Below are positions 1,259 to 60,519 of a stretch of 64,000 nucleotides of DNA, in pieces. The position numbers were made by a program, and so were the translations under genes. The stretch's first letter is position 1. Every line of letters begins with the position of its first letter. Origin of the DNA: Candidatus Magasanikiibacteriota bacterium. Its GTDB lineage: Bacteria > Patescibacteriota > Patescibacteriia > Magasanikbacterales > UBA922. The stretch spans positions 125,136 through 189,135 of the forward strand of contig JBAYVA010000001.1 in the NCBI GenBank assembly GCA_041674805.1. Reading direction: 5' to 3'. The notes below the pieces were generated by a model. That model saw nothing but the letters and a program-made list of their open reading frames with translations, did not search any database and was not told where the DNA came from.

Positions 1259-1771
1259 GAGGAATGAGGTACGAGGAATGTGGAATGGGGGACCACGAAA
1301 AAATTAGCATTGGAATAAATGATGAAATTAAAATAATTTTTTATATAATATGTCTTTACCAAAATCTTTATTAGATTTGAAATTGGTACAAGAAACAAGA
1401 AAATTTATAGTTATTATTTATAAAGTAACTGACAAGTTACCAGAACATGAAAAATATGGTTTGGTATCACAAATGCGCAGGGCTGTTGTCTCTATATTGG
1501 CAAATATAGTGGAAGGTTATGGTAGAGAAACAAAAAAGGATAAATTACATTTTTATATAATTGCGCGAGGATCATTTAGAGAAATAGAATGTTTCATTTT
1601 GGTTTTGAAAGACTTAGATTATATTTCAGACAAACAATATGAATATTTAGTAAAAGTTAAGGATGTCGTTGGTGGTTTACTAACTAATTTTATAAAATCA
1701 AAATCTTGAGACAATCCATGTTACATTTTATTACACTTTCCTCATTCCCCATTCCTCGTACCTCATTCCTC
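1259..1771. repeat. 32-bp inverted-repeat pair (1259-1290 / 1740-1771) bracketing the four-helix-bundle gene; IVS-like cassette
   Basis: GAGGAATGAGGTACGAGGAATGTGGAATGGGG at 1259-1290 and its reverse complement at 1740-1771 (30/32 identical), read directly from the sequence. Confidence 0.75.
1350..1709 (+). CDS. four-helix-bundle protein, 23S rRNA intervening-sequence (S23/Avd-like) family
   Basis: 119 aa. Motifs SQMRRAVVSILANIVEGYGR...HFYIIARGSFREIECFILVLKDL match the PF05635 / TIGR02436 family. Confidence 0.7.
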   Translation: MSLPKSLLDLKLVQETRKFIVIIYKVTDKLPEHEKYGLVSQMRRAVVSILANIVEGYGRETKKDKLHFYIIARGSFREIECFILVLKDLDYISDKQYEYLVKVKDVVGGLLTNFIKSKS

Positions 1772-2558: not shown

Positions 2559-3167
2559 ATGGCTGGAGATTCACTAGACAAATTGATGTATTCATTTGTC
2601 ATGGAGGACGTTTTAAAAGGTTTGTTTATAAAAGTACCTCCTGGACATGTAGCTTGTGTTTATGATCTTGGTAGAGGAGTATTGAAAAAAGTTTTGACAC
2701 CAGGTCTTCATTTCAAAATTCCATTTTGGCAAAAAGCAAGATTATTTAATACTCAAACACTTGAGTATGCTATTTCTCGTGATTTTAATCAATTGAATTC
2801 TAGAGCCATGGGTGATGTGCCGATTGGAGCTGTGACTAAAAGTAACAAAAAAATTGCTATTGAAGGTACAGTGTTACTTCGTTTAGATATTCACCAAATT
2901 CCAAATATTTGGCAGACTATTGGTGAAGATTTTGTTGAAAAAATTATCCGTCCAACTATGCGTAGTCGTATGCGTATGGTTATCAGTCGTTTTGATTCTG
3001 AAGAAATCATCGGAGCTAAGCGTGATGCTGTAGAGACTGAACTAAAAAATGAATTAGAAAGAATATTTTATTCTCGTGGTATCTATGTAGAAAATGTTTT
3101 GCTAAGTGAAATTTCTAGTATTGCTGAGATTAGAAATGCTGGTAAGACTGTTGCAGAAGGAGAATAA
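2559..3167 (+). CDS. SPFH/band-7 (prohibitin/HflC-like) domain protein
   Basis: PGLHFKIPFWQKARLFNTQT and a following alpha/beta core typical of the SPFH domain. Confidence 0.6.
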   Translation: MAGDSLDKLMYSFVMEDVLKGLFIKVPPGHVACVYDLGRGVLKKVLTPGLHFKIPFWQKARLFNTQTLEYAISRDFNQLNSRAMGDVPIGAVTKSNKKIAIEGTVLLRLDIHQIPNIWQTIGEDFVEKIIRPTMRSRMRMVISRFDSEEIIGAKRDAVETELKNELERIFYSRGIYVENVLLSEISSIAEIRNAGKTVAEGE

Positions 3168-3198
3168 ACTTCATTAAAACACTAGAACATAAAAACAT

Positions 3199-3234
3199 TA
3201 AAACAACCTCAAAAAATGAGGTTGTTTTTTTATT
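3199..3234 (+). terminator. rho-independent terminator
   Basis: AACAACCTC-aaaaaat-GAGGTTGTT followed by a T-run. Confidence 0.6.
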
Positions 3235-3335
3235 TTGTTGGATAACACAAATAAATTATGTGTATTTTACCAACCCCCGCCGATTTGTCGGACGGTTAGG
3301 CATCCGTAAATCCGTATTATCCGTATGTTGATAAG

Positions 3336-4096: not shown

Positions 4097-5017
4097 ATGT
4101 CTGAGGAAAATATGCAAGTTATCCCAAGTGTTGGAATGTATATAGAAAACAAAAAAGGTGAATTATTACTTGTAAAATCACACAAATGGGATGATAAATA
4201 TGCTGTACCAGGTGGAAAAATAAAATATGGTGAAACTGCGGTGCAAGCCGTTGAGCGAGAACTATATGAAGAAGTTGGACTGAAAGCAAAAAGTGTAGAG
4301 TTCGTAGATAATATAGACATGATAAAAGATCCAGAATTTATTTATAAACCAGAAGCACATTATGTTTCTCGAAGATTTCAAGTTATAGTTTCTAATACTG
4401 ATGTTGTCTTAAACAATGAAGCTGAAAGTTTTGAATGGGTTGCGCCAGAAGAAATTTTGAAAAGAGATGATGTAGTAACTATTGTCAAAGATTATGTAAA
4501 ACAACACATGCTTTCCAAAGAAAATAAGAAAACAAATAAAAAAGTATTAGAATTAGAAGAAAAAATAGAAGAATACAAATCAGGTTGGCAAAGAGCCCAA
4601 GCTGATTACAAAAATTTGCAAACTGAAATAGAAAATAAAAGAAGTGAATGGGTGAAGATGAGTGAGTTGCAAGTGTTGGAAGATTTTATTCCTGTGTATG
4701 ACAATTTCAAAAAAGCTTTTTCACACCATCCAGAGCTTGATAGCGAAAATGAAAAAGACAAAAAAGTAAAAAATTGGGTAGACGGAATTGGTTATATCAT
4801 GAAACAATTTAGTGATGTATTAAAAAGATTTGAAATAGAAGAAATAAAAACAGTAGGGGAGATGTTCAATCCAGAATTTCATGAAGCAGTCGGTGAAGAA
4901 GATTCAGAAGAAATAGAAGGTAAAATTTTGAGAGAAATAGATGTTGGTTATACTATGAAAGGAAAAGTGATAAAAGTCGCGAAAGTAATAATTTCCAAAA
5001 ATTCCAATAACAAATAA
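4097..5017 (+). CDS. grpE: NUDIX hydrolase domain fused to GrpE nucleotide-exchange factor
   Basis: Residues 1-140 carry a Nudix box (GGKIKYGETAVQAVERELYEEVGL). Residues 150-306 are GrpE (coiled coil LELEEKIEEYKSGWQRAQADYKNLQ, then GEMFNPEFHEAVG...KGKVIKVAKV). Single continuous ORF. Confidence 0.7.
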   Translation: MSEENMQVIPSVGMYIENKKGELLLVKSHKWDDKYAVPGGKIKYGETAVQAVERELYEEVGLKAKSVEFVDNIDMIKDPEFIYKPEAHYVSRRFQVIVSNTDVVLNNEAESFEWVAPEEILKRDDVVTIVKDYVKQHMLSKENKKTNKKVLELEEKIEEYKSGWQRAQADYKNLQTEIENKRSEWVKMSELQVLEDFIPVYDNFKKAFSHHPELDSENEKDKKVKNWVDGIGYIMKQFSDVLKRFEIEEIKTVGEMFNPEFHEAVGEEDSEEIEGKILREIDVGYTMKGKVIKVAKVIISKNSNNK

Positions 5018-5086
5018 ACAAATTCCAAACAATACACAAATAACAATTTGGAATTTGTAATTTATTAATTTGTAATTTTAAAGCAT

Positions 5087-6988: not shown

Positions 6989-8926
6989 ATGTCAAAAATA
7001 TTAGGAATCGATCTAGGAACAACTAACTCATGTATGGCTATCATCGAAGGTGGTCAGCCAAAAGTGTTAGAAAACAAAGAAGGAAATCGTACTACTCCAT
7101 CTGTCGTGGCTATTTCCAAAACAGGTGAACGTCTTGTTGGGCAATTGGCTAAGCGTCAAGCTGTAACCAATCCTGGCAATACTTTGAATTCAATCAAGCG
7201 TCTTATTGGTCGCAGATTTGAAGACAAAGAAGTAAAAGATATTATAGAACATTCACCATATACTATTATCAAAGATGGCGAAAAATTGAAAATAAAAATG
7301 GGGGACAAAGAATATACACCTCCAGAAATTTCAGCCATGATTTTGCAAAAATTAAAAGCTGATGCCGAAGAAAAATTGGGAGAAAAAATTACAGAAGCTG
7401 TTATTACAGTTCCTGCATATTTCGATGATTCACAAAGACAGGCTACTATTGCTGCTGGTGAAATCGCAGGATTGAAAGTTGCTCGTATTATCAATGAACC
7501 AACTGCCGCTGCTTTTGCTTATGGCTTCGACAAAAAAGGTGACCAAAAAATAATGGTTTACGATTTGGGTGGTGGTACTTTCGATGTTTCAGTTTTGGAT
7601 ATCTCTCATGATGGCGAACAATCTACAGTAGAAGTTTTATCAACCAATGGTGATACACATCTTGGTGGTGACGACTTTGACAAAAAAGTTATTGAATGGA
7701 TTCTAGAAGAATTCAAAAAAACAGAAGGTATTGATTTGGCAAAAGATCCACTTTCACTGCAACGTGTCAAAGATGCTGCTGAAAAAGTAAAAATTGAACT
7801 TTCAAGTACTGTCGACGCTGAAATCAACGAACCATTTATTACTTCAGGTGCTGAAGGTCCAAAACATTTGAACTTGAAACTTAGTCGTGCTAAGTTGGAA
7901 GAGTTGGTAAATGATTTGGTAGAAAAAACTATGGGTCCAGTTAGAAAAGCTTTGGAAGATGCCAAAATGCAAAAAACTGAAATCAATGAAATCGTGCTAG
8001 TCGGTGGTATGACTCGTATGCCTCTTGTACAACAAAGTGTAGAAAAGTTTTTTGGTAAAAAACCAAACATTAGTGTCAATCCAGATGAAGTCGTCGCTGT
8101 TGGTGCTGCTATCCAAGCTGGACAATTGCAAGGTGACTTGGGCAAAGAAATTTTGCTTCTTGATGTCACTCCACTTTCATTAGGACTCGAAACTCTAGGT
8201 GGTGTATCTACCAAACTTATTGATAGAAATACAACTATTCCAACTAGTAAAACTCAAGTTTTCTCTACTGCTGCTGACAATCAGCCAAGTGTAGAAATTC
8301 ATGTTTTGCAAGGTGAACGTCAAATGGCAGTTGATAACAAAGCTCTTGGTAGATTTATGCTTGATGGTATTCCACCAGCTCCACGTGGCGTGCCACAAAT
8401 CGAAGTAAAATTTGATATTGATGCTAACGGTGTATTACAAGTATCTGCTAAAGACAAAGGAACTGGTAAAGAACAATCAATTCGTATCGAAGCTTCTTCT
8501 GGTTTATCTGATGAAGAAATAGAAAAAATGAAAAAAGATGCTGAAGCTCACGCTGACGAAGACAAGAAAAAACGTGAAATGATTGATATCAAAAATACAG
8601 CTGACACTATGATTTATACTACCGAAAAAATGATGAAAGATGTAGAAGAAAAGAAAATCGAAGTGACAGATGAAGAAAAACAAAAAGTAAATGATGCTTT
8701 GACAAAAATGAAAGAAGTCAAAGAAAAAGATGATATTGAAGAAATCAAAAAAGTTTCTGAAGAATTATCTACAGCTGCACAAGCTATTGGTATGAAGATG
8801 TATCAACAAGAACAAGCTCAACAGCAAGCAGGTAACAGTGAACAAAAAACAGGTGAACAACCAGCTGATGAAAAAAAGAATGAAGGTGAGTCTGTAGAGG
8901 GGGAAGTGGTTGATGGGGACAAATAG
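6989..8926 (+). CDS. dnaK: molecular chaperone DnaK (Hsp70)
   Basis: 645 aa. [26 protein letters not shown] and a full substrate-binding domain. Confidence 0.97.
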
Positions 8927-12716: not shown

Positions 12717-12764
12717 AAGGCTTGAAATGCCTGAAAAGCTAAAAAGGCTTAAAAGGCTATTTTG
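12717..12764. repeat. phased A-tract GGCTTAAAAG-type repeat (family copy)
   Basis: GAAGGCTTGAAATGCCTGAAAAGCTAAAAAGGCTTAAAAGGCT. Confidence 0.6.
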
Positions 12765-16040: not shown

Positions 16041-16088
16041 AAAAGGCTTACAAAGCTTACGAGGCTGACAAGGCCTACAAGGCTTTTA
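16041..16088. repeat. A-tract repeat family copy (GGCTTACAAAG variant)
   Basis: AAAAGGCTTACAAAGCTTACGAGGCTGACAAGGCCTACAAGGCTTTTA. Confidence 0.5.
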
Positions 16089-16090
16089 AT

Positions 16091-18556: not shown

Positions 18557-18660
18557 AATGTTTAGGTGTTAGGTTCTAGGTATTAGGTTCTAGGTTTTTA
18601 GTGTGATCAAGTAATCAGGTGACTTAAGTGTTCAGGTGATAAGGTGTCAAAGTGATTGAG
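18557..18660. repeat. TTAGGT/AGGTG-rich short tandem repeats
   Basis: GGTGTTAGGTTCTAGGTATTAGGTTCTAGGT... A related copy lies at 33617-33650. Confidence 0.5.
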
Positions 18661-22057: not shown

Positions 22058-22141
22058 AAGGCCTAAAAGGCTTAAAATGCTTGAAAAGCTGAAAAAGCCT
22101 TTTAAGCCTTTTGGGCATTTTAAGCCTTTCAAGCTTTTTTT
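22058..22141. repeat. A-tract repeat copy arranged as a long imperfect palindrome (forward units then reverse units)
   Basis: AAGGCCTAAAAGGCTTAAAATGCTTGAAAAGCTGAAAAAGCCTTTTAAGCCTTTTGGGCATTTTAAGCCTTTCAAGC. Confidence 0.6.
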
Positions 22142-23500
22142 ATGCATATAAAATTCTGCGGAGCCGACGAGGGCGTTACTGGTTCTTGTCATCTTTTGGA
22201 TACTGGCAAAATGAAGATACTCATTGATTGTGGGATGTTTCAAGGTGGAGATTTCAATGAAGGAAGAAATCATGATGTGTTTCCTTTTGATCCAAAAGAT
22301 ATTGATGTTTTGTTGGTTACTCACGGTCATTTAGATCATATTGGACGTATTCCAAAATTAGTAAAAGAAGGTTTTGCTGGCAAAATTTACTCTACCAAAG
22401 CGACTCAAGAATTTATGCCTCTTATTTGGTATGATGCTTACAATATTATGTCTTATGACAATCGTAAATTTGGTTATCCTGTTTTGTTTAATGAAGTAGA
22501 TATTGCTGAAGCTCAAGCTCTTTGTCATGGTCTAGATTATCATGAAGAATTGGATTTGGGTCATGATGTCAAAGCTGTTTGGAAAGATGCTGGACATATT
22601 TTTGGTTCAGCTTTTATTGAAATTACAGTTGATGGCAAAAAAATTGCTTTTTCTGGTGATTTGGGAAATGAACAAGTTCCAATTCTCAAAGATACAGAAA
22701 GTTTGAGTGACGATGTTACTTTGGTTGTCTGTGAATCTACTTATGGTAATCGTTTACATGAAGATATAGATACCAGAAAAAGTGTTATTTCTAATTTAAT
22801 TTTGGAAGGTATCAAACGTGGTGGTACTATTATGATTCCAGCTTTTTCACTTGAACGTACTCAAGAACTTTTGTATGAATTGAATCAGTTGAGTGAATAT
22901 GATAATACTTTGCCTCAGGTACCAATTTTCTTGGATAGTCCTTTGGCAATTGATGCTACCAAAGTTTACAAAAAATATGCTGAGTATTATGATAAAGCAG
23001 CTTTTGATTTGCATATGTCTGGAGATGATTTTTTACATTTTCCTCAATTACAAAATACTTATAGTAAACGTGAATCTCAAAAAATAAACAATACTCCTGG
23101 ACCAAAAATTATTATTTCAGGTGCAGGTATGATGAATGGCGGCAGAATTTTGCATCATGCTTTACGTTATTTATCAGATTCTTTGTCTACTCTTATGATT
23201 GTTGGTTATCAAGCAAATGGTACTTTGGGTAGAAGGCTTTTGGAAGGTGAAAAACATGTAAAAGTTATGGGTACAGATGTTGATGTCAGATGTGAAATAA
23301 AAGCCATTGGTGCTTTGTCAGCTCATGGTGATCAAGCAAAATTGTTGAAGTGGCTTGGCACTGGCAAAAAAGTCAAAAAAGTTTTTTGTGTACATGGTGA
23401 AGGCGACGCTTTGACTACTTTTGCAGACAAAATAAAAACTGATTTGAAAAAAGAAGCTTATATTGCTAAGTATGATGAAGTGGTGGAAATAAAGGCTTGA
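22142..23500 (+). CDS. rnj: MBL-fold beta-CASP ribonuclease (RNase J-like)
   Basis: HGHLDHIG metallo-beta-lactamase motif and a beta-CASP region. 452 aa, shorter than canonical RNase J. Confidence 0.7.
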   Translation: MHIKFCGADEGVTGSCHLLDTGKMKILIDCGMFQGGDFNEGRNHDVFPFDPKDIDVLLVTHGHLDHIGRIPKLVKEGFAGKIYSTKATQEFMPLIWYDAYNIMSYDNRKFGYPVLFNEVDIAEAQALCHGLDYHEELDLGHDVKAVWKDAGHIFGSAFIEITVDGKKIAFSGDLGNEQVPILKDTESLSDDVTLVVCESTYGNRLHEDIDTRKSVISNLILEGIKRGGTIMIPAFSLERTQELLYELNQLSEYDNTLPQVPIFLDSPLAIDATKVYKKYAEYYDKAAFDLHMSGDDFLHFPQLQNTYSKRESQKINNTPGPKIIISGAGMMNGGRILHHALRYLSDSLSTLMIVGYQANGTLGRRLLEGEKHVKVMGTDVDVRCEIKAIGALSAHGDQAKLLKWLGTGKKVKKVFCVHGEGDALTTFADKIKTDLKKEAYIAKYDEVVEIKA

Positions 23501-23530
23501 AAGGCTTAAAAAGCTTAAAATGCTCGAAAG
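23491..23530. repeat. A-tract repeat copy
   Basis: AAAGGCTTGAAAGGCTTAAAAAGCTTAAAATGCTCGAAAGG. Confidence 0.6.
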
Positions 23531-23562
23531 GCAATCTTTGTACTAAAAGATTGCCTTTTTTA
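23528..23562 (+). terminator. rho-independent terminator
   Basis: GGCAATCTTT-gtactaa-AAGATTGCC followed by TTTTTT. Confidence 0.7.
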
Positions 23563-23602
23563 TTTGATTTTTATCTAAATTTAAGTTAATATTAGTTTAT
23601 TA

Positions 23603-23649
23603 AAAGCCTTTTTGGTTTTTCTGGCCTTTTGAGCCTTTCAAGCTTTTTT
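23603..23649. repeat. A-tract repeat copy, reverse orientation
   Basis: AAAAGCCTTTTTGGTTTTTCTGGCCTTTTGAGCCTTTCAAGCTTTTTT. Confidence 0.6.
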
Positions 23650-27394: not shown

Positions 27395-27500
27395 CTAATT
27401 TAGAAATTTTGAATTTTGAATTTTAAAACAATTTTAAAATTTTAAATTTAGAAATTAGAAATTGTTTTAAAATTAAAAATTACTAAATTCAAAATTAAAA
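27395..27500. repeat. AT-rich ~100-bp dispersed repeat (copy 1)
   Basis: Shares TTTTGAATTTTAAAACAAT, TTTAAATTTAGAAATT, AAATTGTTT and AAAATTACTAAATT blocks with 31245-31352. Confidence 0.55.
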
Positions 27501-31222: not shown

Positions 31223-31244
31223 TGTTTCAATTACTATATAGTTT

Positions 31245-31352
31245 TTAATTTTAAATTTAGCAATTTTGAATTTTAAAACAATGAATAAATTTTTAAATTT
31301 AGAAATTTAAAATTGTTTCGAAATTTAAAATTCCTAAATTACTAAATTTTAA
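31245..31352. repeat. AT-rich ~100-bp dispersed repeat (copy 2)
   Basis: See copy 1 at 27395-27500. Confidence 0.55.
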
Positions 31353-31355
31353 AAT

Positions 31356-33632
31356 ATGTCCTATAATTTATTAAACAAAACAGATTTCGAAAAATTCAAA
31401 AAAAATAATTCTAATAAATTCAAATATGATTTTGAAGGTGGGGCTTATTTGAATTTGCAAAATTTAGATTTGGAAAGTTTGCCTGGTATTGAAGTAGATA
31501 AATTAAATAAAATTGCCACACTCATGCGTGAGCTTATTTTTGCCACTGTTGAGGGAAGTCGCTCGGGTCATCCGGGTGGCTCTAGTTCCAAAGTCGAACA
31601 ATTTCTAGGGCTTACTCTTGGCGGTGCTTTGGCTTTTGATCCACTTGAACCAAAAAATACTTGTCGCGATAGAGTAATTTGGTCAGCCGGACATTGTACA
31701 CCAGGTCTTTATAGTGGTCTTGCTTTGTTTTATGAAAGTTTGAAAAAGAAAGGTGTAAAATTTGATGCCAAAAAGTTACATGCTGTTTTGGCCAGAGATT
31801 TGGCAAAATTTCGACGAGCTGGTGGACTTCCTGGTCATGCTGAAAGTTACACTCCTCTTTCAGATATTTCTACCGGTCCTTCTGGCCATGGTTTTTCGGC
31901 TGCTGGTGGATTAGCTATTACTCACAAATCAGCTGGCACGGGAAGTAAAGTTTGGGTTTTTATGGGTGACGCCGAGAGCGAAGAAGGTATGACTTACGAA
32001 GCTCGTAATCTTTTGCATACTGTTGGTGCTGACAATATGATTGTTTCTCTTGATTACAATAATTTTGGTATTGATGGTGATATAAGTGAAGTATTGTCGA
32101 ATAAATATATCAACAACTGGTTAGGCTTAGGTTGGAATGTGATTGAAATAAATGGTCATAATATTTTGGAGTGTGTCTATGCTTATCGTCTTGCTGCACA
32201 AAAAGTTTTTGACAACAATAATCCAACTGTTGTTATTGCTCATACTATTAAAGGTGAACAATATGGTAGTTTGGAAAACACCAATAAATCTCATGGTGAA
32301 GAAGTAAGTCATGAAGAATATGTAAGAATTGAAAGAAATTTAGATATTAACAAAAATACAGTTTTTCCAGATGCCGAAGGTGATATTAAAGATGATTTAT
32401 CAAGCATTGAATTGGATTTGGATATTGTCCTCTCAACTTACATTGTAAACAGACTAAAAGTCTCGGCCAAAAATATTCCAACTGAAAAAAAAGTTGTAGC
32501 ACAAATGAAAAAAACTTTATCTAAAAGAAAGTTTCAAAGTGTTACTTCAATCAAACGTCCTCTTAAATTGCCAAAAGAACTTATTTTTGAAGCAGTGAAT
32601 AAAGTGGCTACTCGCAAAGCTAGTCAAGCATTTTTTGAATACTTAATGAAAGAAAGTGCTTTTTTCTGGGCTGGAGCAGGGGATTTGTCAGAATCAGTCA
32701 AAACAGATAAGGCTGAAAATGTTTTTGGTGTTATAAATAAACAAAATCCTTACGGTCGTGGTATTCGTTATGGTATTGCTGAACAAAATATGGGAATGAT
32801 GGGCACAGGTATGACACTTGATAGATTGCCAGGGAGTTTTGCTCCAGCTTCTGTAATTGGTACTTATGCAGCGTTTACTTCGATGATGTGCAATGGTATT
32901 CGTGTGGCAGTGATAAATAATCATTTATATCCTGCTCACAAAGGTTTTTTCATTGTACTTGCTAGTCACGACGGACCAGAAGTTGGTGAGGATGGACCTA
33001 CACATCAAGGACTTTATTGGATGAGTATGTTTACAGCTTACCCTGGTATCAAAGTTTATAAGCCAACAGACGCTAACGAAACTATTGAAATGCTTTTTCA
33101 TGCTATCAAAATTGGAGAACCAATTGTACTTTCAGTTTCTCGTCCGGATGTAGCAGTACTAAAACGTGGTAAAAATGCTTGTTGTGGTCAGACAGTGCCT
33201 TCAGCCAAAGAAGCTATCAACGGCGCTTATATTTTCAAAGATTACAAAAATAATGGTAAACAAAAAATGTGTGTAGCTGTCTCGGGTGCAATTGTTTTGA
33301 ATAATTTGTTACAAATTTTACCAGAATTAGAAAATGAAAATAAAGACGTTAAAATTGTAGTAGTAACTTCACCAGAACTTTTTGCAGAATTAAAAAAGAA
33401 AAATAAGAAAAAAGCTGAAAGTATTTTCAATTCAAGTGACAGAAAAGTTTGTGTTACTCTGCATGCGGGCTGGAAAGGATTTTTAAGAGACTTCATTGAT
33501 AATGATTTTTATGATGAACGTTCAATTGGTCTTGAAACTTATTTGGAAAGTGGAAGTGTGGATGAAGTTTATGAAATGGCAAAATTGTCGAGTGAGGATA
33601 TAAAAAAGAAATTGTTGGGTATTAGGTTTTAG
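31356..33632 (+). CDS. tkt: transketolase (single-chain, unusually long at 758 aa)
   Basis: TPP-binding motifs GHPGGS and GDAESEEGMTYEARNL...DYNNFGIDG; pyrimidine-binding and C-terminal domains present. Confidence 0.8.
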   Translation: MSYNLLNKTDFEKFKKNNSNKFKYDFEGGAYLNLQNLDLESLPGIEVDKLNKIATLMRELIFATVEGSRSGHPGGSSSKVEQFLGLTLGGALAFDPLEPKNTCRDRVIWSAGHCTPGLYSGLALFYESLKKKGVKFDAKKLHAVLARDLAKFRRAGGLPGHAESYTPLSDISTGPSGHGFSAAGGLAITHKSAGTGSKVWVFMGDAESEEGMTYEARNLLHTVGADNMIVSLDYNNFGIDGDISEVLSNKYINNWLGLGWNVIEINGHNILECVYAYRLAAQKVFDNNNPTVVIAHTIKGEQYGSLENTNKSHGEEVSHEEYVRIERNLDINKNTVFPDAEGDIKDDLSSIELDLDIVLSTYIVNRLKVSAKNIPTEKKVVAQMKKTLSKRKFQSVTSIKRPLKLPKELIFEAVNKVATRKASQAFFEYLMKESAFFWAGAGDLSESVKTDKAENVFGVINKQNPYGRGIRYGIAEQNMGMMGTGMTLDRLPGSFAPASVIGTYAAFTSMMCNGIRVAVINNHLYPAHKGFFIVLASHDGPEVGEDGPTHQGLYWMSMFTAYPGIKVYKPTDANETIEMLFHAIKIGEPIVLSVSRPDVAVLKRGKNACCGQTVPSAKEAINGAYIFKDYKNNGKQKMCVAVSGAIVLNNLLQILPELENENKDVKIVVVTSPELFAELKKKNKKKAESIFNSSDRKVCVTLHAGWKGFLRDFIDNDFYDERSIGLETYLESGSVDEVYEMAKLSSEDIKKKLLGIRF

Positions 33633-33650
33633 GTATTAGGTGTTAGGAAT
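33617..33650. repeat. TTAGGT repeat copy
   Basis: GGTATTAGGTTTTAGGTATTAGGTGTTAGG, overlapping the tkt stop. Confidence 0.5.
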
Positions 33651-33796
33651 ATAATAAAAAGTCTTAAATTGATTATAATTTTAAAATTTTATTTTTGATT
33701 TAGGATTTAGGATCTCGTATTTTTTATTTTTCGCTAATTTATTGACTTTTCTTATTATTTCCTATATAATGTCAACAATTAAATAACAAAAGCATT

Positions 33797-33835
33797 TCTA
33801 GCCTTTCAGGCATTTTCAGCTTTTTAAGCATTTTT
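33797..33835. repeat. A-tract repeat copy, reverse orientation
   Basis: TCTAGCCTTTCAGGCATTTTCAGCTTTTTAAGCATTTTT. Confidence 0.55.
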
Positions 33836-33840
33836 ATCAC

Positions 33841-35862
33841 ATGAACGTCACTGAACTAGCCCGTCAACTTAGAATAAATACTGTAGAATTATTGGATGTT
33901 TTGCCTCAATACGGTTTTGATATTGGTCGCAAAGCTATCAAGATTGATGATGCCACTGCTGAACAAGTGATACGTCGTTGGAAATATATCAAACGTGAAA
34001 TGGAACAAAAGAAAAAACAAGAATTGGAAGAAAAAAAATTAAAAGAAAAAGAATTACGTAAAGAATTGGGACAGCATGTAACTTTGCCAGAAAAATTGAC
34101 AGTTAGAGAATTTGCAGAAAAGTTGAACATGTCTACCACTCAAATTATTACAGAACTCATGAAAAATGGTATTTTGGCAAATCAAAACCAAAATCTTGAT
34201 TATGACACTATGTCTATCATGTCTGAAGATTTGGGTTTTACTGTACACAAACAAGATGGTAATCCAGATGAAGCAAGAAAAGAAGAAGAAAGAATTCAAA
34301 ATCTTGAAGAAGCTTTGTCAAAAGCCAAAAACTTACAGCCACGTGCTCCAGTTATTGTTGTGATGGGTCATGTTGATCATGGTAAAACAAAATTGTTAGA
34401 CACTATTCGTCATGCAAATATTATTGATACAGAAGCTGGTGGTATCACCCAACATATTGGTGCTTACCAAACTATCTGGAAAGATCCAAAAACAAAAAAA
34501 GAACGTGCTTTGACTTTTATTGATACTCCTGGTCATGAAGCTTTTTCTATGATGCGTAGTCGTGGTGCCAAAGTCGCTGATATTGCTATTTTGATTGTTG
34601 CTGCTGATGATGGGGTCAAGCCTCAGACAGAAGAAGCTATTAGTATTATCAAAGCTGCTAAATTGCCGTATGTAGTTGCAATCAATAAAATTGATAAAGA
34701 AAGTGCTGATGTTCAAAAAACAAAAACTGATTTGTCACAAAAAGGTGTTTTGGCTGAAGAATGGGGTGGAAATATCCCAATGGTAGAAATTTCTGCAAAA
34801 CAAAATTTGAATATTGACAAATTATTGGATGTGTTAATTTTGGTTGCTGATATAAATGAAGACAAAATACAAGCTGACCCAGATTTGCAAGCTATTGGTA
34901 CTGTAGTAGAATCAAATGTAGATAAGGGTATGGGGCCTGTCGCCACTGTACTAGTGCAATCAGGTACTTTGCATAGAGGTGACAAACTTGTGGTAAATAA
35001 TGAAATTTATGGCAAAGTAAGAGCTATGAAAGATTATAAAGGAGATTTAGTAGACGAAGCTGGACCTTCTGTACCTATTCAAATCATTGGTTTCAAAATA
35101 GCACCTGAAGTAGGTGATGTCTTAGATATTACCAAAGAAAGTACTGCTACTGAAATAAATTTGAGAAAGAAAAAAGTAGAACAAACAGGTGCTGAAAGAA
35201 ACTTGGATGTTGATAACAATGTTGATGAAGAAGACAAAAAGAAGAGTTTGAACATAGTTGTAAAAGCAGATGTACTTGGTTCTCTTGAAGCAATTATTTC
35301 TTCTTTTGAAAAGATTAGACATGACGAAGTAGGTGTCAAAATTATTGGAAAAGGTCTTGGCAACATTACTGAAGATGACGTAAAAAAAGCAGCTACTAGT
35401 GGTGCTACTGTCATTGGTTTCAATGTCAATGCGACTCCTTTGGCTAACAGTATGATGCGTGAAGAAAGAGTTGACTTTTTGAAATATGATATTATTTATG
35501 ATTTGATAAATTGGGTAAAAGAAGAATTGGGTAAATTGCTTAGTGATGAAAAAATTATTACAGAATATGGTAAAATGAAAGTTATAGGCATTTTCCGCAA
35601 AGAAAAAGGTTCGATGATTGTTGGTGGCAAGATGGAATCTGGCAAAGTAGTCAAAAATGTTTTGGCTAGAGTAGTTCATGAAGGTTTGGTGATGGGTAAT
35701 GGCAAAATTACAGAATGTCGTCTTGGACAATCTATTGCTAAAGAAGTTCATGAAGGTATGGAATGTGGTGTTAGATTTGAAGGTAAAATTAAAATTGAAG
35801 TTGATGATGTATTGGAATTTTATACTGAGGAGACAAAAGCACGTGAAATTCAATTTTTATAA
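33841..35862 (+). CDS. infB: translation initiation factor IF-2
   Basis: N-terminal IF2_N, G domain (GHVDHGKTKLLD, DTPGHEAF, NKID) and C-terminal beta-barrels. Confidence 0.93.
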   Translation: MNVTELARQLRINTVELLDVLPQYGFDIGRKAIKIDDATAEQVIRRWKYIKREMEQKKKQELEEKKLKEKELRKELGQHVTLPEKLTVREFAEKLNMSTTQIITELMKNGILANQNQNLDYDTMSIMSEDLGFTVHKQDGNPDEARKEEERIQNLEEALSKAKNLQPRAPVIVVMGHVDHGKTKLLDTIRHANIIDTEAGGITQHIGAYQTIWKDPKTKKERALTFIDTPGHEAFSMMRSRGAKVADIAILIVAADDGVKPQTEEAISIIKAAKLPYVVAINKIDKESADVQKTKTDLSQKGVLAEEWGGNIPMVEISAKQNLNIDKLLDVLILVADINEDKIQADPDLQAIGTVVESNVDKGMGPVATVLVQSGTLHRGDKLVVNNEIYGKVRAMKDYKGDLVDEAGPSVPIQIIGFKIAPEVGDVLDITKESTATEINLRKKKVEQTGAERNLDVDNNVDEEDKKKSLNIVVKADVLGSLEAIISSFEKIRHDEVGVKIIGKGLGNITEDDVKKAATSGATVIGFNVNATPLANSMMREERVDFLKYDIIYDLINWVKEELGKLLSDEKIITEYGKMKVIGIFRKEKGSMIVGGKMESGKVVKNVLARVVHEGLVMGNGKITECRLGQSIAKEVHEGMECGVRFEGKIKIEVDDVLEFYTEETKAREIQFL

Positions 35863-35915
35863 TTTGGATGAAAACATAAAAGCATAAAAACATTAAAACA
35901 ATTTGAAAAAAGAAA

Positions 35916-43399: not shown

Positions 43400-43449
43400 A
43401 AGGCTTAAAAGGCCAGAAAAGCTTGAAAGGCTCAAAAGGCCTTTTTTGT
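43400..43449. repeat. A-tract repeat copy ending in an AAAAGGCCTTTT palindrome (acts as terminator)
   Basis: CAAGGCTTAAAAGGCCAGAAAAGCTTGAAAGGCTCAAAAGGCCTTTTTT. Confidence 0.6.
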
Positions 43450-43611
43450 TATGTTTTGCTTGTAGTTAGCAATTATATAATAACAAAAAGTAACTGGAAG
43501 TAATTAACAAAACATCATCCAGTTACCTTTAGTTACTTCAAGTTATTATGAGTGCATGTCTAATATTCGTGGTTAATATTTGTTTAGTATTTGAAATAAT
43601 ATTCGTGTTTC

Positions 43612-49557: not shown

Positions 49558-49740
49558 AGTGTTTATTTTTTTAGTTTAAAATACATATTTATAATACCTC
49601 TCTACTCTAATTATCGCAAATATACAAAAAAGTAGCTTGTTTTAGCAAAAAAATAGCTATTTTTAAAAAAACTTAAAATAAAATTAAAAGTTATTCACAC
49701 CATAATAACAAAAACAGCTAAATTAGCTGTTTCTTCTTAG

Positions 49741-49811
49741 TTCGGGGATAGGGATTCGAACCCCAATAGTCAGGATCAAAACCTGAAGTCCTACCATTAG
49801 ACGATCCCCGA
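49741..49811 (-). tRNA. tRNA-Gln (anticodon TTG)
   Basis: Hand-folded cloverleaf: acceptor TCGGGGA/TCCCCGA, D-stem GTCT/GGAC, anticodon stem TCAGG/CCTGA with loop TTTTGAT, T-arm GGGG-TTCGAAT-CCC. Confidence 0.8.
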
Positions 49812-50492: not shown

Positions 50493-50496
50493 ATGT

Positions 50497-50548
50497 TTGA
50501 AAATGCTTAAAAGGCTTAAAATGCTGGAAAAGCTAGAAAGGCTAATTA
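50497..50548. repeat. A-tract repeat copy
   Basis: GAAAATGCTTAAAAGGCTTAAAATGCTGGAAAAGCTAGAAAGGCT. Confidence 0.6.
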
Positions 50549-50585
50549 TATTTATATTTCAAGCCTTTTGAACTTTTTTGTTTTT

Positions 50586-60375: not shown

Positions 60376-60448
60376 ATTATGTATGATTAAGAGTTAGTAA
60401 ATTAGTTATTACTAAGTTAGAAGCTAAATTAAAGTTTTTTTTCTTTAG

Positions 60449-60519
60449 TTCGGGACTAGGGATTCGAACCCCAATAGACAGGACCAGAACCTGCCGTCCT
60501 ACCATTAGACGAGCCCCGA
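60449..60519 (-). tRNA. tRNA-Gln (anticodon CTG)
   Basis: Same scaffold as the 49741 tRNA with anticodon loop TTCTGGT; acceptor TCGGGGC/GTCCCGA. Confidence 0.8.

Follow-up and report, generated by a model that had tools for sequence, protein, structure and literature searches.

A probable non-ribosomal hairpin cassette of the rRNA intervening-sequence type, framed by inverted heptamer arrays, between the ftsX-like and yidC genes of a Magasanikiibacteriota bacterium

We analyzed a stretch of 64,000 nucleotides from a Candidatus Magasanikiibacteriota bacterium (positions 125,136 to 189,135 of contig JBAYVA010000001.1; hereafter the window), which has a GC content of 32%. Near its beginning, a single open reading frame (ORF) for a four-helix-bundle protein of 119 amino acids (1350-1709, plus strand) is enclosed by two inverted arrays of heptanucleotide repeats, each of five tandem units (5' arm, 1259-1293; 3' arm, 1737-1771). 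The segment is flanked by two host genes on the same strand: a MacB/FtsX-type permease gene upstream (11-1252; PF12704, 4e-33; PF02687, 3e-21) and yidC, of the 60 kDa inner-membrane insertase family, downstream (1841-2548; PF02096, 3e-19). These profile matches confirm the neighbors named in a first-pass annotation, made by a model from the sequence and its translated ORFs. The window contains no rRNA, and the cassette lies between protein-coding genes.

The two arms form a nearly exact inverted repeat. Over 32 nt (1259-1290 and 1740-1771, 449 nt apart) they are complementary at 30 positions (94%), as the first-pass annotation had reported. Allowing up to three mismatches, the arm is found at only these two sites in the window, and not a single match arose in 100 shuffles. 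In RNA the mismatches correspond to one G.U and one U.C opposition; the RNA duplex of about 32 bp proposed earlier is not perfect. We found that the arms are built of heptamers, a likeness to the intervening sequences (IVSs) of rRNA that had been missed. The 5' arm is G-rich and C-poor and reads GAGGAAT, GAGGTAC, GAGGAAT, GTGGAAT, GGGGGAC; the 3' arm reads TTTCCTC, ATTCCCC, ATTCCTC, GTACCTC, ATTCCTC, complementary to the former and with the order of units mirrored. Tandem Repeats Finder recovers a period of 7 at 1257-1287 and again at 1738-1771. In the RNAfold prediction for positions 1240-1800 the arms pair with each other (-156.7 kcal/mol, z = -8.1), and the predicted stem grows outward into the host flanks (outer extensions 1241-1258 and 1772-1792), pairing approximately 1241-1256 with 1777-1792. 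The segment therefore has the anatomy of an rRNA IVS, a long stem with an ORF of the S23p family in its loop, in agreement with the earlier annotation.

The permease gene ends in ATTAGGAAAGA(G/A)TAG, with the stop codon at 1250-1252 and the 5' arm beginning 6 nt further on; this end is kept in relatives and marks the left border of the variable segment. An AT-rich spacer (1294-1349) separates the 5' arm from the start codon. It is present in the related locus L001 and missing in L003, L006 and L008, where the arm directly adjoins the ATG, so it does not belong to the conserved cassette. The spacer holds a promoter-like ATGAAA-N16-TATAAT (1322-1349, 10 of 12 hexamer matches), which we rejected as an internal promoter since it is not kept in relatives and sites of this kind show no enrichment over shuffles. 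A second promoter-like sequence, TTGCTT-N17-TATTAT, was read upstream of yidC (1781-1809). It is kept in all relatives, cassette-bearing or not, and is a putative promoter of yidC.

The protein belongs to the 23S rRNA-IVS (S23p) family, as previously proposed: it scores 109.6 bits on PF05635 (1e-31; cut-off 33.8) and 107 bits on TIGR02436 (6e-31; cut-off 24). An AlphaFold2 monomer model (pLDDT 97) consists of four helices (residues 11-28, 32-57, 62-88 and 94-118), and its Foldseek TM-scores are 0.92 to Xcc0516 (2GSC), 0.80 to BT_0352 (2RLD) and 0.79 to Avd, the accessory protein of diversity-generating retroelements (DGRs). Xcc0516 is reported to be a homopentamer of four-helix bundles (Lin et al. 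2006, as cited in later work), and the structure entries of both Avd and Xcc0516 contain five chains. The motif of the PF05635 family, GxxRxxxSxxxNxxE (Zhang & Ye 2013, PMC3936711), is represented in the window protein by R44-x3-S48-x3-N52-x2-E55, invariant in the alignment of relatives; the first motif position is Q41 instead of G in the clade of the window. For the ORFs of the window and its close relatives, the ratio of nonsynonymous to synonymous substitution rates (dN/dS) is 0.05-0.11 at dS of 0.65-3.4. The protein is therefore under purifying selection and, judging from this pattern of substitution, is functional. The heptamer type of the arms has persisted across this divergence, at which synonymous sites are near saturation.

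The association between genes of this family and inverted heptamer arrays extends far beyond the window. We collected 80 homologue loci from species-representative genomes at a protein identity of 35-47%, belonging to the candidate phyla radiation (CPR), Omnitrophota, Chloroflexota, Acidobacteriota, Bacteroidota, Planctomycetota, Nitrospirota, Gammaproteobacteria and others. At each locus the 220 nt upstream of the ORF were aligned with the reverse complement of the 220 nt downstream, and the locus was counted as positive if the score was at least 30 and above every one of up to 60 same-sized control placements elsewhere in the locus. A bracketing inverted repeat was detected at 51 of the 80 genome loci, with shorter arrays at several further ones. 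Inverted arrays also bracket the ORF on 36 of 55 viral contigs from IMG/VR, bringing the total to 87 of 135 loci. Among the 51 genome loci, both arms have a period of 7 in 40 and a period of 8 in about 10, and the arms sit close to the gene, with median gaps of 3 nt upstream of the start and 5 nt downstream of the stop. The heptamer itself varies by lineage (AGTAAGG in Chloroflexota, GGTCGTT in Acidobacteriota, GTATCTG and GATTTAA in CPR), and the two arms match within each element. Permuting the order of units lowers complementarity in about 64 of 76 informative loci; with only 3-5 units per arm the test is weak for any single locus, and the pooled direction alone is informative. The arms therefore form genuine palindromes rather than independent arrays that share a motif. 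Not one of the 80 genome loci is inside an rRNA gene or next to one.

In 49 of the 51 genome loci, G is abundant and C scarce in the 5' arm. This chirality holds for cassettes on either strand and may come from a role of the arm as a purine-rich ribosome-binding region; alternatively, it may avoid an exposed C-rich site for Rho loading. The extreme case of the survey is L085 (Vreelandella sedimenti), in which 212-nt arms of about 30 heptamers (2264-2475 and 2844-3055) surround a 121-aa intervening-sequence protein (IVP) gene, one arm being (GTGAGTG-like)n and the other a perfectly regular (CACAACT)n.

Comparison of close relatives shows that the gene and its arms occur together at unrelated sites. 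In five loci (L001-L005) the proteins are 87% identical and the cassette stands at the same ftsX-yidC junction; the arms there also belong to the G[AG]GGAA[CT] type, with units that differ in order and number, and L003 differs from L005 by exactly one GGGGAAT unit. In another six (L006-L011) the proteins are 74-77% identical and lie at an unrelated locus, between histidine kinase and bactofilin genes, where the 5' arm and the end of the kinase ORF overlap. The arms there are (GAGGAAC)n, which is the same G[AG]GGAA[CT] type. Four further pairs of cassettes (L059/L074, L030/L038, L074/L091 and L023/L035) have proteins 75-82% identical in non-homologous flanks, and within each pair the repeat family is apparently the same, as judged by eye and without scoring. 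L008 carries a second, frameshifted IVP copy (7830-8254) on the same contig as the first, with the unit AAAACAC / GTGTTTT and the rare reversed chirality in which the C-rich arm is 5'. As the arms of the two copies differ, the repeat unit is specific to the cassette and not to the genome.

The ftsX-yidC junction is itself variable in its occupancy. A metagenome scan of the junction with YidC as the query produced 21 loci. A cassette is present at the junction in L097. In L092, L093, L095 and L098 there is no ORF, and the junction holds a hairpin of about 75 nt made of inverted (ATACGAA)n arrays; in L094, L096 and L099 an ORF-less hairpin consists of (TAAAGTT)n-type arrays. RNA folding is strong for the ATACGAA hairpins (z = -7.2 and -5.6) and only weak for the one TAAAGTT hairpin tested, that of L094 (z = -1.9). 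A more distant locus, L111, has a different IVP (46% identity) with other arms upstream of yidC. Occupied and ORF-less junctions share their flanks, ...ATTAGGAAAGAATAG on the left and CTTGCTTTTTT...TTGCTATTATATAAGCATAAT on the right. The closest comparison is between L097, with a cassette, and L098, with an ORF-less hairpin: they are 99.9-100% identical over 1.74 kb of yidC-band7, the whole insert differs, and the identity begins inside the stretch that corresponds to the outer 3' stem (1772-1792). Genomes with and without the ORF at this junction stand equally close to the window (Band7 94-96%, YidC 70-76%), and the presence of the cassette is patchy. The first-pass annotation had named fixation at this locus in all relatives as the mark of an ordinary resident gene; the existence of equally related genomes of the same lineage without the cassette indicates that it is not one.

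The relatedness of the permease gene at the junction is mosaic. FtsX is 96% identical to that of the window in L001 and 75% in L003, although the two loci are alike in IVP (87%), YidC (70-71%) and Band7 (94-96%). This suggests recombination adjoining the cassette site.

Taken together, the gene and its arms are gained, lost and exchanged as one unit at intergenic sites, which points to a probably selfish cassette. We consider it about 60% probable that the segment at approximately 1253-1780 is a non-ribosomal copy of an ORF-bearing hairpin cassette of the IVS type. With no rRNA location among the 80 genome loci, the copies in rRNA seem to represent a special case of a more general cassette. 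The origin from rRNA suggested by the first-pass annotation, that of a transposed IVS, thus probably has the direction reversed; of that interpretation as a whole the IVS anatomy is retained, and the ribosomal origin and a proposed link to DGRs are not.

How such a cassette would be transcribed, cut and moved, and what its protein would do, is inferred. On transcription the arms would form a duplex of at least 32 bp, or about 50 bp with the flanks, which by the precedent of Coxiella, Salmonella and Leptospira is the kind of substrate that RNase III cuts. Within rRNA such cutting excises the element harmlessly. At the ftsX-yidC junction it would separate the cassette RNA from the 3' end of the ftsX transcript, leaving yidC to be expressed from the conserved promoter-like sequence in front of it (1781-1809); as this sequence follows the 3' arm, yidC need not rely on read-through. 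No RNase III signature was found within the window. The protein would most likely be a nucleic-acid-binding oligomer that acts on its own repeat arrays or RNA.

Several observations weigh against this reading, and a part of them would be expected of an element operating at the level of DNA. No significant inverted repeat was found at 48 of the 135 loci, and neither the arms nor the ORF recur elsewhere in the window. The promoter-like sequence of yidC lies between the 3' arm and that gene, and the earlier placement of the element inside a polycistronic mRNA is uncertain. Among stem mismatches at the 51 genome loci (L012-L091), A(5' arm).C(3' arm) outnumbers G.U by 84 to 36, and by 26 to 6 when loci are counted, and the hairpins of sense and antisense arms are equally stable (p = 0.11); the data thus give no positive sign that the sense RNA duplex, and not symmetry at the DNA level, is under selection. 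The orientation of neighboring genes is near random, with the upstream neighbor on the same strand in 50 of 79 cases and the downstream one in 39 of 73 by crude ORF calls, which fits poorly to an element dependent on read-through. The lack of a G.U excess and the near-random orientation would suit a DNA-level mobile element, with the arrays as terminal inverted repeats that offer iterated sites to a recombinase acting in trans or to the four-helix-bundle protein, and with the RNA hairpin as a by-product. Such an element would also account for cassettes with cognate arms at unrelated sites and for occupied and unoccupied alleles in near-identical backgrounds (L097/L098), and the ORF-less hairpins could be its non-autonomous derivatives. 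We regard it as a serious rival, if an unlikely one. No recombinase, transposase or integrase is encoded in or beside the cassette, whose sole ORF is that of the four-helix-bundle protein, and no signal of a target-site duplication was detected (the longest word shared by the outer flanks has a mean length of 3.09 versus 2.93 +/- 0.09 in permutations, with the arm ends being fuzzy). Both results count against the hairpin cassette as a mobile unit as well as against its DNA-level rival. The latter is further weakened by the lack of a second copy in 64 kb and by the ORF-less hairpins at the junction, which use other repeat units and are therefore not simple deletion derivatives, and the one experimentally studied relative works at the RNA level (PMC4990558).

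A last point against the hairpin cassette is that the window is rich in ORF-less intergenic hairpins whose arms are tandem repeats of 7-9 nt (for example 22058-22139, 23491-23648, 27396-27497 and 4997-5079), so that arms may arise by a general process that is not tied to the cassette. These hairpins may be ORF-less relatives of the cassette, in which this lineage would then abound, or hairpins grown by slippage may be commonplace here. The second possibility leads to an explanation in which the gene is an ordinary, immobile resident, its arrays are hairpins grown by slippage that serve as terminators or RNA stabilizers, and the differences among relatives arise from fast local turnover and homologous exchange of the spacer. 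Changes of arms in place between homologues that share flanks (L122 versus L130) and shifts in copy number by single units agree with this explanation, which we nevertheless find less probable than the DNA-level one. Against it stand the bracketing of this one gene family by inverted heptamer arrays at 87 of 135 loci across phyla, measured against within-locus controls, the shared heptamer type of closely related proteins at non-homologous sites, and the difference of an entire insert beside a flank that is 99.9% identical (L097/L098). The within-locus controls in other phyla argue that the link to PF05635 is specific. The remaining candidate, a DGR remnant with an orphan Avd gene, could draw on the fold shared with Avd and on weak matches to the Avd models. 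These matches stay below the curated cut-offs (PF22296, 36.9 versus 40; NF033474, 42.2 versus 80), at odds with the scores on PF05635 and TIGR02436, which are far above theirs, and the identity of the protein to Avd is only 11-13%. In agreement with the first-pass annotation, which had seen neither a reverse transcriptase nor a pair of template and variable repeats (TR/VR), the window has no TR/VR-like direct repeat of at least 45 nt and, by a crude test, no YxDD motif in ORFs of at least 200 aa. We therefore reject the DGR fragment, which had been one of the readings offered there, as extremely improbable.

Other repeats in the window are of several kinds. Tandem arrays of 9 nt, (AAGGCTTAA)n or its complement (AAGCCTTTT)n, are dispersed at 12717-12763, 16043-16089, 22058-22139, 23491-23648, 33788-33844, 43400-43455 and 50493-50557. 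Several of them form intergenic hairpins; the one at 22058-22139 has 38-nt arms and a 4-nt loop (-34.5 kcal/mol, z = -3.9). The intergenic hairpins at 27396-27497, 31242-31355 and 4997-5079 have arms of 7-8-nt tandem repeats (AATTTAGA / AATTTTGA; AATTTGT) and are similar to the ORF-less hairpins that relatives carry between ftsX and yidC. Solo direct arrays of heptamers, (TTAGGTN)5 and (GATTTAG)2-3, occur at 18562-18596, 33612-33650 and 33697-33716 with no inverted partner nearby, and the array at 33612-33650 overlaps the 3' end of a long ORF (31356-33632). Arrays of 8-mers, (CATTAAAA)4 and (AAAACATA)n (3172-3205, 35871-35900; 3302-3326), were noted just 5' of a terminator-like hairpin downstream of the band-7 gene, and among these same positions an (ATCCGTA)-like array stands 3' of a GC-rich mini-hairpin (CCGCCGATTTGTCGGACGG). 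The window also carries two tRNA-Gln genes on the minus strand (49740-49811 and 60448-60519), with anticodons TTG and CTG, which are approximately 85% identical including their flanks.

Returning to the hairpin cassette, we offer a broader and rather doubtful extension: the IVSs of rRNA might be merely the part first noticed of a class of hairpin cassettes that spans the bacteria and is also present on viral contigs, each cassette being a PF05635 gene between inverted heptamer arrays. The pentameric protein would recognize its own arm, with each subunit taking one of the roughly five 7-nt units as RNA or single-stranded DNA, and so control processing, translation or copying of the element; ORF-less tandem-repeat hairpins would be non-autonomous relatives. 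If true, this would be a mobile RNA/DNA module, complete in itself, whose encoded factor is of a new kind. Apart from this extension, the analysis suggests that rRNA is a minority location of a far larger class of cassettes. The class can be searched for by its signature, mirrored heptamer arrays with a PF05635 ORF that fills the loop between them, and the origin and spread of IVSs and the role of the S23p protein become testable in tractable organisms such as Bacteroides, cyanobacteria and Acidobacteria rather than in obligate pathogens. Such a class would explain the presence of PF05635 genes inside operons, for example cas loci (PMC3936711), and would link unexplained heptanucleotide repeats of bacteria to a specific protein family. 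For annotation, it would flag insertions of about 500 bp that may split operon transcripts.

The protein family, the IVSs of rRNA and the occurrence of PF05635 genes outside rRNA are already known. IVSs have been known since about 1990. IVP ORFs are present in insertions of both 16S and 23S genes of CPR bacteria (bioRxiv 10.1101/2024.02.27.582315), and PF05635 genes have been found outside rRNA, including inside cas loci (PMC3936711). A full-text literature search retrieved no account of PF05635 genes outside rRNA with flanking heptamer arrays, an absence that is no proof of novelty, and none of ORF-less counterparts at the same site as such a cassette.

Miniature inverted-repeat transposable elements and class II transposons resemble the cassette in their terminal inverted repeats, presence/absence polymorphism and ORF-less relatives. 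The cassette differs from them in having neither a transposase nor a detectable target-site duplication, and in arms that are internally repetitive and vary by slippage of units. Heptanucleotide repeats of bacteria, among them the cyanobacterial short tandemly repeated repetitive (STRR) sequences, the TAACTGA repeats of Beggiatoaceae and the long simple sequence repeats (LSSRs) of Mrazek et al. 2007, are likewise intergenic tandem arrays of 7-nt units, often directly 5' of start codons and with a patchy phylogenetic distribution, as reviewed in PMC4679880. There they appear as direct arrays without a partner, whereas the cassette consists of two inverted arrays around one gene family, and the searched text of that source contains no link between such repeats and PF05635.

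Avd of the Bordetella phage BPP-1 shares the four-helix-bundle fold and, like Xcc0516, is listed with five chains. It is distinguished by its low sequence identity and by its association with a reverse transcriptase and TR/VR, both absent from the cassette. To our knowledge, Avd genes have not been reported as bracketed by heptamer arrays, and several viral loci without arrays (L113-L115, L163) may be of the Avd kind.

Within rRNA, the short ORF-less IVSs of Salmonella and Photorhabdus (approximately 80-110 nt) are similar in size and in their extended stem-loop to the junction hairpins of L092, L094 and L098, which differ in lying outside rRNA; the arms of these junction hairpins are tandem 7-8-nt repeats. 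The closest known counterparts of the cassette are the ORF-bearing 23S rRNA IVSs of Coxiella and Leptospira. These are located in helix 25 or 45 of 23S rRNA, unlike the cassette of the window with its protein-coding neighbors; the S23p ORF of Coxiella is decaying and judged untranslated, in contrast to the ORF of the window, which is under purifying selection; and excision by RNase III, demonstrated for the Coxiella IVS, is a prediction by analogy for the cassette. In both, terminal inverted repeats form a long stem whose loop is filled by an S23p/PF05635 ORF, and both have a sporadic distribution and a size of about 430-520 nt (PMC4990558). The likeness extends to the repeats themselves. In the 428-nt IVS of Coxiella burnetii, tandem GACAGAT heptamers within the stem stand directly upstream of the S23p ORF in 2-3 copies, depending on the strain, and the start of the first repeat is the site at which RNase III cuts (PMC4990558); a comparable variation in the copy number of stem heptamers is seen among cassettes of the window type, between L003 and L005.

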